From positions 1 to 64,000 of the forward strand of contig CAVWPA010000002.1 of NCBI GenBank assembly GCA_963756875.1: a stretch of DNA of 64,000 bases. Direction: 5' to 3'. The notes beneath the pieces are model-generated. The model did no database searches. It worked only from the letters and a program-made list of their open reading frames with translations, and was not told the origin of the DNA. Positions 23,183 to 27,799 of the stretch are shown one piece after another. Position numbers and translations under genes: made by a program. Within the stretch, counting starts at the first letter, position 1; each line of letters starts with the position of its first letter. Source of the DNA: an uncultured Verrucomicrobiae bacterium (GTDB lineage: Bacteria > Verrucomicrobiota > Verrucomicrobiia > Chthoniobacterales > UBA10450).

Positions 23183-26100
23183 TTAAGTCTCGTAACCCAG
23201 ATTCGGCGCCAGCCGCTTCTCCGCCGCCGCCATCGTTTCGCCCCGCCTTGCGGCATAATCGACAACCTGATCCCGGCCGATCTGCCCGACACCGAAATAT
23301 TTTGCGTCCGGATGCGAAAAATAAAAGCCGCTGACACTCGCCGCCGGATGCATGGCAAACGATTCTGTGAGTCTGATTTCGATTTTATTTTCGGCGCCTA
23401 ACAAATCGAAGAGCGTGCGCTTCTCGGCGTGATCGGGGCAGGCCGGATAACCCGGCGCCGGACGAATCCCGCGATATTTCTCGCGGATCAGATCGGCCGT
23501 TGAAAGATGTTCGTCATGACCGAAGCCCCATGCGATTCGTGCCTCTTTATGCAAGTATTCGGCGAAAGCCTCGGCCAGCCGGTCCGCCAGCGCCTTGGCG
23601 ATAATTGCGCTGTAATCGTCGTGCGCCGCGGCAAAACGTTGCGCCAATTCATCCGCGCCATGAATGGAGACGGCAAAACCGCCGAGGAAATCGGGAAGTT
23701 GAGAGTTGAGAGTCTGCCTGCGTCGATGGACGACCCCGGAGACGTTCGGGGTTGAGAGTTGAGAGTTCCCCGTCGCAACGTAGTCGGCCAGGCAGTGGTT
23801 CGCCTGGCCGGATGGTTTTTGCATTTGCTGCCGCAGGAAATAGAACGTCGCCAGCTTTTTCGTCCTTGCTTCGTCCACGTAAAGATCGACGTCGTCGCCC
23901 GTTGAGGCTGCCGGCCAAAAGCCGTAAATGCCGCGCGCAGTCAGGAGATTCTCCGTCACGATTTGATCGAGAATCTTCTTCGAATCATCAAAGAGTTCCC
24001 GCGCCTGTTTGCCGATTTTCGGATCGTCGAAAATGGCCGGGTAACGTCCGCGCAATTCCCAGACGTGAAAGAACGGCGACCAATCGATATAGTCGACGAG
24101 CGTGCTCAGAGAAATGGTTTGGGGAGCACAGGCGTCTCGCGTGTTGGTCTCGGCGTTGCGCCGAGACGAACTTTCGGTCGTAGGTTGCGTGGACGCGGCG
24201 CCTGGCGTGGAGAGAGAAGTTCGCGACGGTGAGACACCGTCGCCAGCACGCGAGACGCGTGCGCTACCCAGAATGCGCACGCCGAGAAATTCCGGTTTCG
24301 GCGGAGTGTAATTCTTCCAGTCGATCGGAGTCCGGTTGGCGCGGGCTTTCTCCAGCGTGAGCAGTTTCTTTTCGCGTGTTTTGGCTGCGTGGTCGGTGCG
24401 CAGGCGCGCGTATTCGGCGCGTGTCTGCGTGTCGAATTCGGATTTCAAGTGGTCCTTTAACAACGAATTTACGACGCCAACGGCGCGCGATGCATCGAGC
24501 ACGTGAACGGTGCTGGCGTGGTATTGCGGCGCGATCTTTACCGCCGTGTGCGCGCGGCTGGTCGTGGCGCCGCCAATCAAAAGCGGCAGCTCGAATTTCT
24601 CGCGCTCCATTTCCTGCGCGACGTGCACCATTTCATCGAGCGACGGCGTGATCAGGCCGCTCAAACCAATGGCATCCGCGTTCGTTTCCCGCGCAGCTTC
24701 CAAAATCCTGGCGGCCGGGACCATCACGCCAAGATCGACGACTTTGTAGTTGTTACATTGTAACACGACGCCGACGATGTTTTTGCCGATGTCGTGCACG
24801 TCGCCCTTCACCGTTGCCATCACGATGCAGCCCTGCGGTTTTGCGCCTGCGGTTTTCTCCGCTTCCATGAAGGGCATCAAATAGGCGACCGCCTTTTTCA
24901 TCACTCGCGCGCTCTTGACGACTTGCGGCAAAAACATTTTGCCGGCTCCGAAAAGGTCGCCGACTACGCTCATTCCCGCCATGAGCGGCCCTTCGATGAC
25001 ATCGAGCGGCCGTTTCGATTGTTGCCGCGCTTCTTCCGTATCGACATCGATAAAATCGGTGATGCCCTTGATGAGCGCGTGCTTCAGGCGTTCTGCGACA
25101 GGCGCCGTTCGCCACGCTTCATCCTTAACCGGCGCTTTGCCTTTTGCTTTGACCCTTTCGGCGAAGTCGACCAAACGCTCGGTTGCATCGTCGCGGCGGT
25201 TCAACAGAACATCTTCGACGCGCTCGCGAAGCTCCGGCTCGATCTCTTCATAAACCGCGAGCTGCCCCGCATTGACGATTCCCATGTCGAGTCCGGCGTG
25301 AATGGCGTGAAACAGAAAGGCGGCATGCATCGCTTCACGGACGGTGTTGTTTCCGCGAAACGAGAATGAAATGTTGCTAACACCGCCGCTGACGCGCGCG
25401 CCCGGCAGGTTCGCCTTGATCCAACGGGTGGCTTCAATGAAATCGACGGCATAATTGCGATGCTCGTCGAGGCCGGTCGCAACCGTAAGAATGTTGGGAT
25501 CGAAAATGATGTCGTTAGGCGGGAAATGTACGCGCTCGGTCAGGAGCTTGTATGCGCGAGCGCAGATGTCGATTTTGCGCTGACAATTATCGGCCTGGCC
25601 CTGCTCGTCGAATGCCATCACGATCACTGCGGCGCCGTATTGCCTAACAAGCCTGGCCTGGCGCAAAAATTCGTCCTCGCCGTTTTTGAGGCTGATCGAA
25701 TTGACGACCGATTTGCCCTGCACGCATTTGAGCCCGGCCTCGATGACGCTCCATTTCGAACTATCGATCATCAGAGGAACGCGCGCGATTTCCGGCTCGG
25801 TGCCGATCGAGTTCAAAAAGCGCGTCATGGTCGCTTCGGAATCGATCATCCCTTCGTCCACGTTCACATCCAGAATATTGGCACCGCCCTGGACCTGTTG
25901 ACGCGCCACCCTCAGCGCGCCCTCGAAATCGCCGCCCAGGATGAGCTTCGAAAACTTCGGCGACCCGGTGATGTTTGTGCGCTCACCGATGACAACAAAG
26001 CCGACCTCGGGCGTGATGTTGAGCGGCTCGAGCCCGGACAATTGGAGAGGGATCGCGGACTGCGGATCGCGGATTGCGGATTGGGTGGCGCGCACCGAGT

Positions 26101-27799
26101 CGGCTTGTGCGTCCGGATTGGGGAGCGCACGCGCCTCGCGTGCCGTCTTCGGCGCCCGCGCCGAAGACCCTTCCGCCGTCCATAACCACGAATAATCCGC
26201 ATCCTGTCTCGCGACTCCCGCGTTCCATGGATTCCTGCAAATGTACCTGTACTTCTCATGAAGATCGGATTCCGAACGAATCAGACGATCAAACGATTCC
26301 TTTTCCCACACTGTTCCGTGAGTTCCGGCCACTTTGTTGATCCTGTGAGCGGTCGAGGACTTGATTCCATGGAGAATTTCTGTGAGTGACCAAAAAATCG
26401 TGCGTCCCTCGGCGTCCTGTTCCTTGATTTGTGGTTCGAGAAGGATGTGAACGTGATCGGGCATGATACACGCAGCGTAGAGCTCGTATTGTTGGTGCTC
26501 ATGACCGCGAAGAATGCTTTGCAGAACGATGTCTCGTTCCGCCGGAGTGAGTCGGCGGTGATTGCGGGTGGAAAATGCAACCGCGTACCTCGCCCATGGG
26601 CGCTCAAAATGAGGGAGACGGCGCTTGGAATAAACGGTATCTGTAGTGGTTTCGGCGGGGGCGCCGAAACCGGCACGCGAGGCGCGTGCGCTCCCCGGAA
26701 TCGCGTGCTCCCGCGCGAACGAGGGTGCGGGCCGCGGCTTGCAATCGCGCACGGCCGCGACCAGTGCGCGGATGTGCTCCGGGGTGGTGCCGCAGCAACC
26801 GCCCACGATGTTCAGCCAGCCGTTGGCGGCCCATTTCGCAACTTTCGGTGCAAACGTTTCCGGCGTCTCCGGGAACCCGGTTTCCGAAAGCGGATCGGGC
26901 AGGCCCGCATTTGGATAAGCGCTCATATAGTAAGGAGAAATGCGCGCCAACTCCTCGATATAAGGTTCCATCTCGTCCGGCCCGAGCGCGCAATTCAGCC
27001 CGACAATGAGCGGCTTCGCATGCGCGACCGATATCAGAAACGCTTCCACAGTTTGACCGCTCAACGTTCGACCGGACCGATCCGTCACCGTTCCGGAAAT
27101 CATCAGCGGGACTTTCTTGCCGGTCTTTTCGAAGAGTTCCGCAATGGCAAAAAGCGCCGCTTTTGCGTTCAACGTGTCGAATATTGTTTCAACAATGAAA
27201 AGATCGACGCCGCCTTCCAGCAGCGCCGCGGCCTGATCGAGATAGGTCTGGCGAAGTTGATCGAAAGAGACGACGCGAAACCCGGGATCGTTTACATCCG
27301 GCGAAATGGAAGCGGTCACGGGCAGGGGACCAAGAGCCCCGGCAACAAACCGGCGTGCGCCCGTTTTGTCCGTCGCGCAATCGGCGGCGCGTCGGGCAAT
27401 CTGCGCCCCGGTCAGATTGATCTCACGCACAAGCGCGCGGAGCGCGTCGTCGTCCACGACGCGTTGAAAAAACTGCTGATCTTTTTTTCCGCCGGCGGGT
27501 TCTCCTCGAAAAAGAAAATCGTGAAGGCCGATCGTGGTCGCGCTGAATGTGTTTGTCTCGATGATATCGGCGCCGGCTCCGAGATATTTCGCATGAATCT
27601 CTTCGATGACCTGCGGTCTGGTGAGCTGCAAGAGCTCGAGGCAGCCCTTGAGATCTTTACCGTGCCAATCGCGAAACCGTTCTCCGCGATAATCGTCCTC
27701 AGAGAGCTTATGAAGCTGGATAGTCGTCCCCATGGCGCCATCGAGAACGACGATACGTTCGCGAAGAAGCGCTTCGAGGGGGTAAAGATTGTCCGGCAT
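23183..27799 (-). CDS. metH: Cobalamin-dependent methionine synthase carrying in-frame insertions (RAYT domain and repeats)
   Basis: [59 protein letters not shown]; 1538 aa uninterrupted. Confidence 0.97.
24121..24269. repeat. REPIN-like non-autonomous element in frame within metH
   Basis: GGGGAGCACAGGCGTCTCGCGTG ... CACGCGAGACGCGTGCGCTACCC inverted ends. Confidence 0.85.
26120..26696 (-). mobile_element. REP-associated tyrosine transposase (RAYT, IS200-like Y1/HUH) domain flanked by perfect 26-bp inverted REPs, embedded in frame in metH
   Basis: [17 protein letters not shown] (HUH), [21 protein letters not shown]; IRs 26120-26145 and 26671-26696. Confidence 0.92.

Follow-up and report, generated by a model that had tools for sequence, protein, structure and literature searches.

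In an uncultured Verrucomicrobiae bacterium, the reading frame of metH, the gene for cobalamin-dependent methionine synthase, contains a complete REP-associated tyrosine transposase (RAYT), flanked by translated inverted REPs, at the linker between the homocysteine-binding (Hcy) and pterin-binding domains. This insert is probably a live REPtron (REP hairpins, RAYT, REP hairpins) that has adapted to life within reading frames. MetH is not its only host: the same lifestyle is found across the lineage, in RecG, AlaRS, ThrRS, CarB and ValRS as well. Features are collected in Table 1, with positions given in the window, namely the whole stretch of 64,000 nucleotides that was analysed.

Table 1. The fused metH gene and its insert, in window coordinates, ordered along the gene.
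Feature	Position	Strand	Basis
metH ORF	23183..27799	-	1538 aa, continuous, internal stop absent; NCBIfam NF007024
Homocysteine-binding domain, residues 17-350	26750..27751	-	Pfam S-methyl_trans, 1.9e-87
Whole insert, residues 356-582, 227 aa	26054..26734	-	MetH alignment with short-linker relatives; alignment to 4CCZ
Gene-proximal (5') REP arm, translated, two DNA hairpins	26651..26696	-	Inverted repeat; 89-copy REP family
RAYT (Y1 HUH transposase) core, residues 396-545	26165..26614	-	Pfam Y1_Tnp, NCBIfam REP_Tyr_transpos, AlphaFold, Foldseek
HUH motif codons, H449-V450-H451 (MPDHVH)	26447..26455	-	Sequence
Tyr519 codon (YICRNP), putative catalytic tyrosine	26243..26245	-	Aligns with YIYINP of 4ER8
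Gene-distal (3') REP arm, translated, two DNA hairpins	26120..26165	-	Inverted repeat; ssDNA fold
14-nt tandem direct repeat, insert tail (10 residues)	26050..26077	-	Repeat search, alignments; absent in G017
Pterin-binding domain, residues 605-843	25271..25987	-	Pfam Pterin_bind, 5.9e-59
Second in-frame REP doublet (REPIN), cobalamin/activation-domain linker, residues ~1176-1228	24120..24270	-	Inverted arms and REP match

The host gene has all that is expected of a methionine synthase. Its ORF scores 1932 bits against the NCBIfam profile (cut-off 1497), and an HMM scan, which an earlier note on this DNA had proposed, orders the Pfam domains as S-methyl_trans, Y1_Tnp (residues 406-501), Pterin_bind, B12-binding_2, B12-binding and Met_synt_B12 (1231-1520), with the transposase domain between the first two MetH modules. 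The modules of the cobalamin-dependent enzyme (Hcy, pterin, cap, B12, activation) are complete with their key motifs, including the cysteine motifs LNCALG (268) and GGCCG (333) of the Hcy domain and the B12 motif GDVHDIG (D-x-H-x-x-G), and pN/pS is low in each of them. The source genome, a three-contig assembly that is 87.6% complete, yielded no match to MetE (PF01717), so that metH is probably needed there. The 1538-residue protein is presumably made and would work as methionine synthase. Its linker between the cobalamin and activation domains carries a REP doublet too, with inverted arms of 54 nt (24120-24173 / 24217-24270, 74%) and a REP match at 24246-24268; this doublet is translated and varies among MetH orthologs.

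About 225 extra residues at 26049-26731 had been announced in the earlier note. Their place in the Hcy/pterin linker stands, and alignment shifts the limits to 26054-26734, for 227 residues. Against human MetH (4CCZ), residue 364 of the query meets residue 339 of the chain and residue 586 meets residue 343; some 221 insert residues correspond to 3 in the same linker of the solved enzyme. The insert has no stop codon, a single frame staying open over its full length. A start and a stop of its own are absent, as had been noticed: there is a single 1538-residue frame, without any in-frame ATG, GTG or TTG from V350 to M446. The N-terminal 10-residue motif of the RAYT core begins at residue 393, and M446 is already inside the HUH motif. 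The perfect 26-bp inverted REPs, themselves translated, also reappear, as the outer 26 nt of arms that extend over 46 nt and are 93% complementary. The hairpins of the arms fold (z = -4.1 for the gene-proximal arm as single-stranded DNA), and in mRNA this 46-nt inverted repeat could have an effect on translation or stability. GC3 is 0.56 in the RAYT core against 0.65-0.73 in the MetH domains, an oddity if the element has resided there for very long.

The complete in-frame RAYT core, with its HUH motif and tyrosine, is recognized by profiles as well as by fold. Pfam Y1_Tnp (PF01797) gives the metH product 25.3 bits, against a gathering score of 23; NCBIfam REP_Tyr_transpos (NF047646) covers residues 397-538 with profile positions 4-145 of 146 at 72.8 bits, under the curated cut-off of 80, which other members of the clade reach (L048 with 85.4, L051 with 81.8 and L040 with 81.0 bits). 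By sequence, the insert finds 4ER8 as a marginal match in the PDB (E 0.087). An AlphaFold2 model of the insert, built from 51 sequences, has a mean pLDDT of 81.7, rising above 90 over approximately residues 45-190 of 227; its REP-coded flanks are predicted with low confidence (pLDDT 53-60), as would be expected of flexible tethers. With this model, Foldseek ranks first 4ER8_A (E 4.4e-6, 148 columns, rmsd 3.1, TM 0.67 on the target), the TnpA-REP (YafM) of E. coli, followed by IS200/IS605 TnpA structures, and the HUH and Tyr motifs of the insert align with HMH and YIYINP of 4ER8. In 53 aligned relatives H-x-H is kept 51 times and Tyr 51 times, both being intact in 50; the motifs are broken in AlaRS_G062 (HVD), AlaRS_G084 (GVH, with Tyr lost) and RecG_G117 (Tyr replaced by Ser). 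We infer that the RAYT of the metH insert is catalytically active in the fusion and services the REP/REPIN population of the genome.

That population is sizeable. The REP arm of the insert belongs to a family with 89 copies in the source genome (at most 3 mismatches), 44 of them exact, forming about 22 inverted doublets; this family, together with the recurrence of the in-frame arrangement in other genomes, excludes chance. A second RAYT, 70% identical and with the same REP flanks, is free-standing (G000:C3:1631542-1632216, where G000 is the source genome), and its ORF also continues through both its REPs. Because of this paralog, RAYT activity in the source genome need not come from the metH copy. 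Among the matches listed, the copies of this RAYT clade in two REP-rich relatives, G082 (103 REPs) and G017 (27), are all in frame, and the correlation between REPs and RAYTs across genomes is anecdotal, these genomes being kin. Elsewhere in the source genome, a UvrA-like ORF carries several in-frame REPs.

The fused MetH-RAYT arrangement, for which a database search had been suggested, recurs in G017, among 80 named Verrucomicrobiota loci at 10, and in dozens of database proteins with lengths of about 1450-1650 residues, so that at least 10 other species-level genomes keep the fused frame; RAYT inserts are found in other housekeeping proteins as well. A search of 151 genomes of the order gave 45 RAYT matches (E<=1e-50), of which 41 lie inside open frames of at least 734 residues. 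The hosts are RecG (17), AlaRS (15), ThrRS (6), MetH (2) and CarB (1), with four copies free-standing. AU tests, run after inspection of the trees with the groups (host genes) set beforehand, reject monophyly for the RAYTs of RecG, of AlaRS, of ThrRS and of metH linker 1. On the MetH tree the fused state is scattered, and the RAYT tree of the metH copies, congruent with it for the most part, recovers four MetH clades, which together indicate an old residence followed by repeated loss. The same linker has known other fates. G004 and L081 have a different RAYT lineage there, and G001 has a REP doublet only, with outer ends as in the insert. Three relatives (G009, G010 and G013) have metH in two translationally coupled cistrons, cut exactly at the insert linker, and in G004 there are three, with the RAYT as the middle one; the metH split around a RAYT, which the earlier note had weighed against a fusion, therefore exists in this relative and not in the source genome. 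The Hcy/pterin linker is a permissive site. With catalytic residues and REP ends conserved, and with gain, loss and replacement all seen, the RAYT element behaves as a live mobile element.

How such a unit might live inside a gene can be proposed as follows. A REPtron lying in phase in a permissive linker, which for metH is the junction of the homocysteine and pterin barrels, would let the ribosome pass through the whole unit. The resulting host protein would carry the RAYT as one more globular domain, with two flexible REP-encoded peptides as tethers. Persistence would follow from the host gene, which would supply expression and, when needed, would let only frame-preserving changes survive at the site, while REP scars remaining in linkers may act as landing pads for re-colonisation. 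Judged from sequence, translation of the fusion is probable, as are the activities of RAYT and MetH. A passenger domain that borrows expression without splicing was what the earlier note had in mind. The borrowing fits the comparative data (a fused frame kept in at least 10 further genomes despite in-frame linker indels, purifying selection, no intron or intein), and the word 'passenger' is too passive.

An inert passenger is nevertheless the alternative that survives best, unlikely as it is: the RAYT would be translated with MetH while being dead or irrelevant, and kept since clean deletion is rare. The broken motifs of the two AlaRS copies and of RecG_G117 would agree with this, and the free-standing paralog could supply all RAYT activity in the source genome. 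The pattern of substitutions speaks against it. Between G000 and G017, pN and pS are 0.154 and 0.744 in the RAYT core, 0.132 and 0.595 in the Hcy domain, and pN is 0.146 in the activation domain; the pN/pS of the core, for which the earlier note had proposed dN/dS, is about 0.2, omega values being rough because dS is saturated. As read from these comparisons, the core is under purifying selection comparable to that of MetH's own domains. In four orthologs its identity (0.85/0.85/0.83/0.72) tracks that of the Hcy domain (0.90/0.86/0.86/0.78) and of the activation domain, and 150 of its 150 positions align free of indels; the REP-coded linkers do have indels, all of them frame-keeping. The REP arms have a low pS between the same two genomes (0.29-0.52), which points to constraint at the DNA level. 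To this is added the near constancy of the HUH and Tyr motifs. Finally, losses are evidently frequent, so that retention of the RAYT is not merely failed deletion.

It is quite unlikely that the insert is not read through, whether because of RNA splicing, of DNA excision in most cells or of translational bypass, or because the two halves are made separately via internal initiation. To be sure, the two- or three-cistron metH genes of relatives are presumably functional, and pairing of the long inverted repeat, in RNA or in single-stranded DNA, would place the two ends side by side. However, removal would leave no selection for an open frame in phase, yet nearly all RAYT matches lie in long frames and the linker indels keep the phase. 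Within 23000-28500, no Rfam family, intron, ribozyme or other, reaches its gathering score, and no intein or Hint family of Pfam is present in the metH ORF at E<=0.01, in line with the lack of intein signatures noticed earlier. A canonical start is missing for the conserved N-terminus of the RAYT. The split relatives have a stop/restart signal ahead of LQLSGLEP, a signal that is missing in the source genome.

Exaptation, in which the RAYT fold would have been recruited for a host function (e.g. nucleic-acid binding or regulation) and its mobility ended, is very unlikely. Long vertical inheritance with metH under purifying selection would suit it, and RAYTs in general have been argued to be housekeeping-like (available text of Bertels, 2017, PMC5581495). 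Against this, the same domain occurs in at least five unrelated enzymes and is patchy among close relatives, another RAYT lineage substitutes for it at the same site, REP ends are always kept, and the enzymes evidently function without a RAYT in sister genomes.

As for the soundness of the assembly, soil metagenome contigs, the sole public DNA source that matched (12% of the sampled words), contain no junction-spanning sequence; among RNA sources none was listed. What matched were short pieces from other organisms, aligned to the REPs and to conserved parts of metH, with few joints, having sides of 22-28 nt and 90% likeness; since no contig spans the junctions, these data neither confirm the assembly nor show empty sites. 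The chance of an assembly artefact or a pseudogene is negligible, for although public reads are unusable for checking this incomplete three-contig genome, independent assemblies have these junctions too (G017, the 10 named loci, many database proteins), and purifying selection on all MetH modules, with MetE not found, argues against a pseudogene.

A transposase would be expected to have a gene of its own, and the very name of REPs places them outside genes. The literature on REPtrons, or TnpA-REP, reportedly includes work of Nunvar in 2010, of Bertels and Rainey in 2011 and of Messing in 2012. REPtrons consist of a RAYT/TnpA-REP gene flanked by REPs, BIMEs or REPINs, as with YafM of E. coli and the RAYTs of Pseudomonas (available text of Quentin, 2018, PMC6006769; Bertels, 2017, PMC5581495). 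The metH unit is like them in its Y1 HUH fold, its HUH and Tyr motifs, its inverted REP hairpins, also dispersed as singletons and doublets, its low copy number per genome and its largely vertical inheritance. It differs in that described RAYTs are free-standing and extragenic, whereas the RAYT of metH is in phase in a housekeeping ORF, without start, stop or promoter, between REP ends that are translated.

The original paper on Rickettsia palindromic elements is said to be that of Ogata in 2000. Intragenic translated REPs are described in Opitutus terrae and others, along with these Rickettsia elements; such GC-rich hairpin repeats in frame lengthen known proteins by 20-80 residues, and DNA-repair enzymes and tRNA synthetases tolerate them (available text of Di Nocera, 2013, PMC3733652). 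The second-linker REP doublet of MetH and the repeats of the UvrA-like ORF are of the same kind. The repeats described there are non-autonomous, whereas the metH insert includes a transposase in frame, of which no mention was found in the available text and term-searched supplement files of Di Nocera (2013, PMC3733652).

Inteins offer another likeness, as selfish elements lying in frame in housekeeping proteins, without start or stop, expressed by the host and protected by the harm that imprecise loss does to its gene. In contrast with them, the insert has neither a Hint/splicing domain nor a homing endonuclease; it is predicted to fold as a Y1 transposase, presumably stays in the protein, occupies linkers or loops and not the conserved active-site motifs, and would owe its mobility to a single-stranded DNA transposase. 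IStrons join an IS200/IS605-type transposon to a group I intron (available text of Tourasse, 2014, PMC4227781). They share with the insert a related transposase superfamily and harmless insertion into genes, but are neutralised by RNA self-splicing; in the metH insert, a ribozyme was not detected at the Rfam gathering score, and read-through seems to provide neutrality. The earlier note knew of no described case. In accord with it, no report of a host gene with an in-frame RAYT or another Y1 transposase came from the literature searched, which leaves most subscription journals uncovered and may have incomplete supplements, nor does an in-frame RAYT appear in the available text of Quentin (2018, PMC6006769), Bertels (2017, PMC5581495) or the preprint of Bertels and Rainey (2021).

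It is tempting, as a tentative generalization, to see in-frame REPtrons as a distinct class of selfish DNA: single-stranded DNA transposons without promoter, start or stop of their own, whose sole form of expression would be an active domain within housekeeping proteins, and which would be shielded from deletion by the host gene (a sort of 'non-splicing intein'), with REP scars as landing pads, reading frames being the main habitat of the whole RAYT clade in Verrucomicrobiota. Such a clade of read-through transposon units inside essential enzymes (MetH, RecG, AlaRS, ThrRS, CarB) would account for odd dual annotations, e.g. 'alanyl-tRNA synthetase/REP element-mobilizing transposase RayT'. It would also be a route for the acquisition of new domains by housekeeping proteins, and the tolerance of HUH domains to internal fusion may be of interest for protein engineering. 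If the fused RAYT is active, selfish DNA would have a third harmless route into genes, the other two being RNA splicing (introns, IStrons) and, for inteins, protein splicing, and this would bear on the long-term maintenance of RAYT/REPIN systems in genomes.

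The methionine synthase gene metH of this uncultured Verrucomicrobiae bacterium (genome G000) is a single open frame that carries, in the linker between its homocysteine-binding (Hcy) and pterin-binding domains (linker 1), a REP-associated tyrosine transposase (RAYT) read in frame; the observation is real. Pfam matches all five MetH modules and places Y1_Tnp (residues 406-501) between S-methyl_trans (17-350) and Pterin_bind (605-843), as an earlier note had foreseen. NCBIfam takes the whole protein for a methionine synthase (1932 bits, cut-off 1497), and its REP_Tyr_transpos profile is covered from position 4 to 145 of 146 at residues 397-538 (72.8 bits, cut-off 80). 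In an alignment with human MetH (4CCZ), residues 364 and 586 pair with chain residues 339 and 343, so that about 221 residues stand where the solved enzyme has 3. Measured against short-linker relatives, the extra stretch, which the note had put at about 225 residues, amounts to 227.

Coordinates of the metH insert and of related features in G000
Feature	Position	Strand	Remarks
metH ORF	23183-27799	minus	single open frame, 1538 codons
Insert vs short-linker relatives	26054-26734	minus	residues 356-582
5' REP arm, translated	26696-26651	minus, gene order	first part of insert
RAYT core	26614-26165	minus, gene order	HUH motif H449-V-H451; Y519 in YICRNP
Inverted 3' REP arm, translated	26165-26120	minus, gene order	after RAYT core
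Short insert tail		minus	14-nt tandem repeat; beyond 3' REP arm in gene order
Second in-frame REP doublet	24120-24270	minus	cobalamin/activation-domain linker, residues ~1176-1228, ...NTRDACAPQ
Other same-family REP copies in window	52267-52406, 56989-57011, 57825-57847, 61463-61485		mostly ORF edges; inverted doublet at 52267/52384
Free-standing RAYT paralog	G000:C3:1631542-1632216	plus	70% identical to metH RAYT; outside window
UvrA-like frame	G000:C3:700928-705391	minus	1488 codons; outside window

The two 46-nt REP arms are 93% complementary, and each gives two hairpins when folded as single-stranded DNA; the perfect 26-bp inverted repeats of the earlier note are their outer 26 nt, both translated in frame. 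The insert has no stop codon, nor any in-frame ATG, GTG or TTG between V350 and M446, already in the HUH motif, which bears out its want of a start or stop of its own. Nor does an intein signature appear: Pfam finds no intein domain in the MetH ORF, and no Rfam intron or other RNA family reaches the gathering score in the metH region. In an AlphaFold2 model of the 227-residue insert (alignment of 51 sequences) the core has a pLDDT above 90, the REP-coded flanks staying low (53-60). The closest PDB fold is 4ER8_A, E. coli TnpA-REP on a REP hairpin (E 4.4e-6, 148 columns), with IS200/IS605 TnpA structures next; the core is complete, with HUH motif and tyrosine, as had been read from the sequence. 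The GC3 of the core, 0.56, lies below the 0.65-0.73 of the MetH modules, although core and modules have apparently long resided together.

The same insert occupies the same junction in G017, a genome of the same family and a different genus, in a 1514-codon frame. Between G000 and G017 (Nei-Gojobori method, own script), pN and pS are 0.154 and 0.744 for the RAYT core, near the 0.132 and 0.595 of the Hcy domain, with 0.058 and 0.639 for the pterin and 0.146 and 0.727 for the activation domain, ratios that are rough because dS is saturated. The REP arms have a pS of 0.29-0.52, low enough to indicate that the DNA itself is constrained. Across four orthologs of increasing distance, identity of the core (0.85, 0.85, 0.83, 0.72) falls in step with the Hcy domain's (0.90, 0.86, 0.86, 0.78); the core aligns at 150 of 150 positions free of indels, and the indels of the REP-coded linkers all keep the frame. 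H-x-H is conserved in 51 of the 53 clade members aligned, the tyrosine likewise in 51, and the two together in 50.

The arrangement is not an assembly artefact. The 80 best named loci were compared, labelled Verrucomicrobiota or subgroups except for two short contigs; ten (L069-L075, L078, L081, L083) run in one frame from the end of the Hcy domain through the RAYT into the start of the pterin domain. In six more the RAYT shares its frame with the Hcy domain: L076, L077, L079 and L082 then meet a stop and start anew for the remainder of MetH, L080 changes frame inside the right REP, and L084 ends with its contig. L080 and L142 are short contigs whose RAYT loci resemble those of Verrucomicrobiota; their assignment to Nitrospirota and Acidobacteriota MAGs probably reflects binning errors. 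The RAYT region matches 879 database proteins of at least 845 aa (E<=1e-10); the 120 listed are mostly MetH and AlaRS, with helicase and ThrRS, and include double source names such as 'alanyl-tRNA synthetase/REP element-mobilizing transposase RayT'. Inserts at the same site and in other housekeeping proteins, which the earlier note had thought worth seeking, thus exist.

Among relatives, the junction takes several other states: a short linker (G008, G016, G006, G007), a REP doublet with the same outer ends (G001), the RAYT joined to the Hcy half only, three coupled cistrons metH-N, RAYT and metH-C (G004, locus L003), or two coupled cistrons lacking RAYT (G009, L011; G010, L009; G013, L006). 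Coupling in the split forms is translational, by overlapping ATGA or a nearby ATG. Covalent linkage is therefore dispensable at this junction, which explains its tolerance of a 227-residue guest. The 'short', RAYT-free linkers of L004 (G016) and L008 (G006) also carry hairpin repeats, a different small palindrome being read in frame (TGTGGGAG...CTCCCACA in L004, more diverged in L008). In linker 2, between cobalamin and activation domains, the REP doublet varies in orthologs: it is missing, of another REP type, or a second complete RAYT (P0002, P0006, G082, L077), the MetH proteins P0002 and P0006 having one RAYT per linker.

The RAYT core has matches in 51 of 151 genomes of the order. At E<=1e-50, 41 of 45 matches lie inside open frames of 734-1542 aa, and four in frames of 219-274 aa. 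All 45 close copies were retrieved and their host genes typed: RecG (17), AlaRS (15), ThrRS (6), MetH (2, in G000 and in the second linker of G082), CarB (1) and free-standing (4). Genome G007, the source of L014 among the AlaRS rows and of one row for MetH, is flagged unpublished, and no count rests on G007 rows alone. A second, longer Y1 type (RNLPHW...YFVTFRLADS), found in the same order with hairpin-coded flanks of its own, lies in frame in ValRS (L022, L024) and CarB (L023, L025-L027), and at the C-terminus of a cation-efflux protein (L028).

Host labels require 12 changes on the RAYT tree, against 27.4 in shuffles. AU tests, with groups set by host gene and run once the tree had been seen, reject monophyly of the RAYTs from RecG, AlaRS, ThrRS and metH linker 1 (p ~1e-65 to 3e-4). 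The RAYTs of G000, G017 and G082 (second-linker copy) group beside two free-standing copies (G000:C3, G139), and the RAYTs that G004 and L081 carry in linker 1 belong to another lineage. On the MetH tree (pterin plus B12) the fused loci lie scattered, which requires 9 changes, at least 5 of them forced by supported branches. The tree of metH-resident RAYTs matches four MetH clades (L074+L083; L072+L073 with L075 and L071; L077+L080 with L069; L002+L070). The pattern is most simply explained if linker 1 was colonised long ago and the element was then inherited vertically along with metH, being lost repeatedly and at times replaced.

The REP core of the arms has 89 copies in the 2.69-Mb genome (<=3 mismatches), 44 of them exact, many in inverted doublets spaced 90-160 bp; the consensus, TYYGGGGAGCGCACGCGCCTCGCGTGC, precedes a second hairpin whose stem varies from copy to copy. 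Copies lie mainly at ORF edges, several deep within long ORFs. The free-standing paralog is flanked by the same REPs, and its 225-codon frame spans both, so that an uninterrupted frame characterises the element as such and not just its copy in metH; the paralog's ATG comes two bases past the upstream gene's stop. The UvrA-like frame contains 3 or 4 in-frame same-family REP doublets, in agreement with REP-interrupted uvrA genes reported in Opitutus terrae (Di Nocera, 2013, PMC3733652).

We propose that the ribosome reads through the element, yielding a MetH in which two flexible peptides encoded by the REPs tether the RAYT domain. Read-through would spare the element a start, stop or promoter, and would explain its conserved frame and phase. 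The earlier note's passenger, read through and unspliced, proves essentially right, the frame being kept with neither intein nor intron found; the fusion product and its activity we infer. The E. coli TnpA-REP family acts on REP hairpins in single-stranded DNA, and the metH RAYT would do likewise, as its conserved catalytic residues and REP ends suggest. The most REP-rich of 41 family genomes (G082, 103 copies; G000, 72; G004, 69; G017, 27) have metH-associated RAYTs with the same REP, a hint only, these genomes being kin; among the clade matches listed, G082 and G017 have in-frame copies only. Persistence may come from expression borrowed from the host gene, and also from the fact that solely frame-preserving changes would be viable in what is apparently the sole methionine synthase gene of G000; MetE was not found in this genome (87.6% complete). 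Repeated colonisation of the same sites might, speculatively, reflect targeting of resident REP scars.

RAYTs, REPs, REPINs (inverted REP doublets) and REPtrons (RAYTs between REP hairpins) are well described as extragenic systems. A literature search, which included passages of Di Nocera (2013, PMC3733652) and its supplement, turned up no account of a RAYT resident in frame within a host gene; the REPs reported there inside genes of Opitutus terrae, a member of the Verrucomicrobia, and of Rickettsia are alike in being translated. RAYT, REP and MetH are thus known as parts, and their arrangement and proposed mode of expression appear new and undescribed in print. The in-frame arrangement is widespread in Verrucomicrobiota, and in this order it is a lineage-wide lifestyle.
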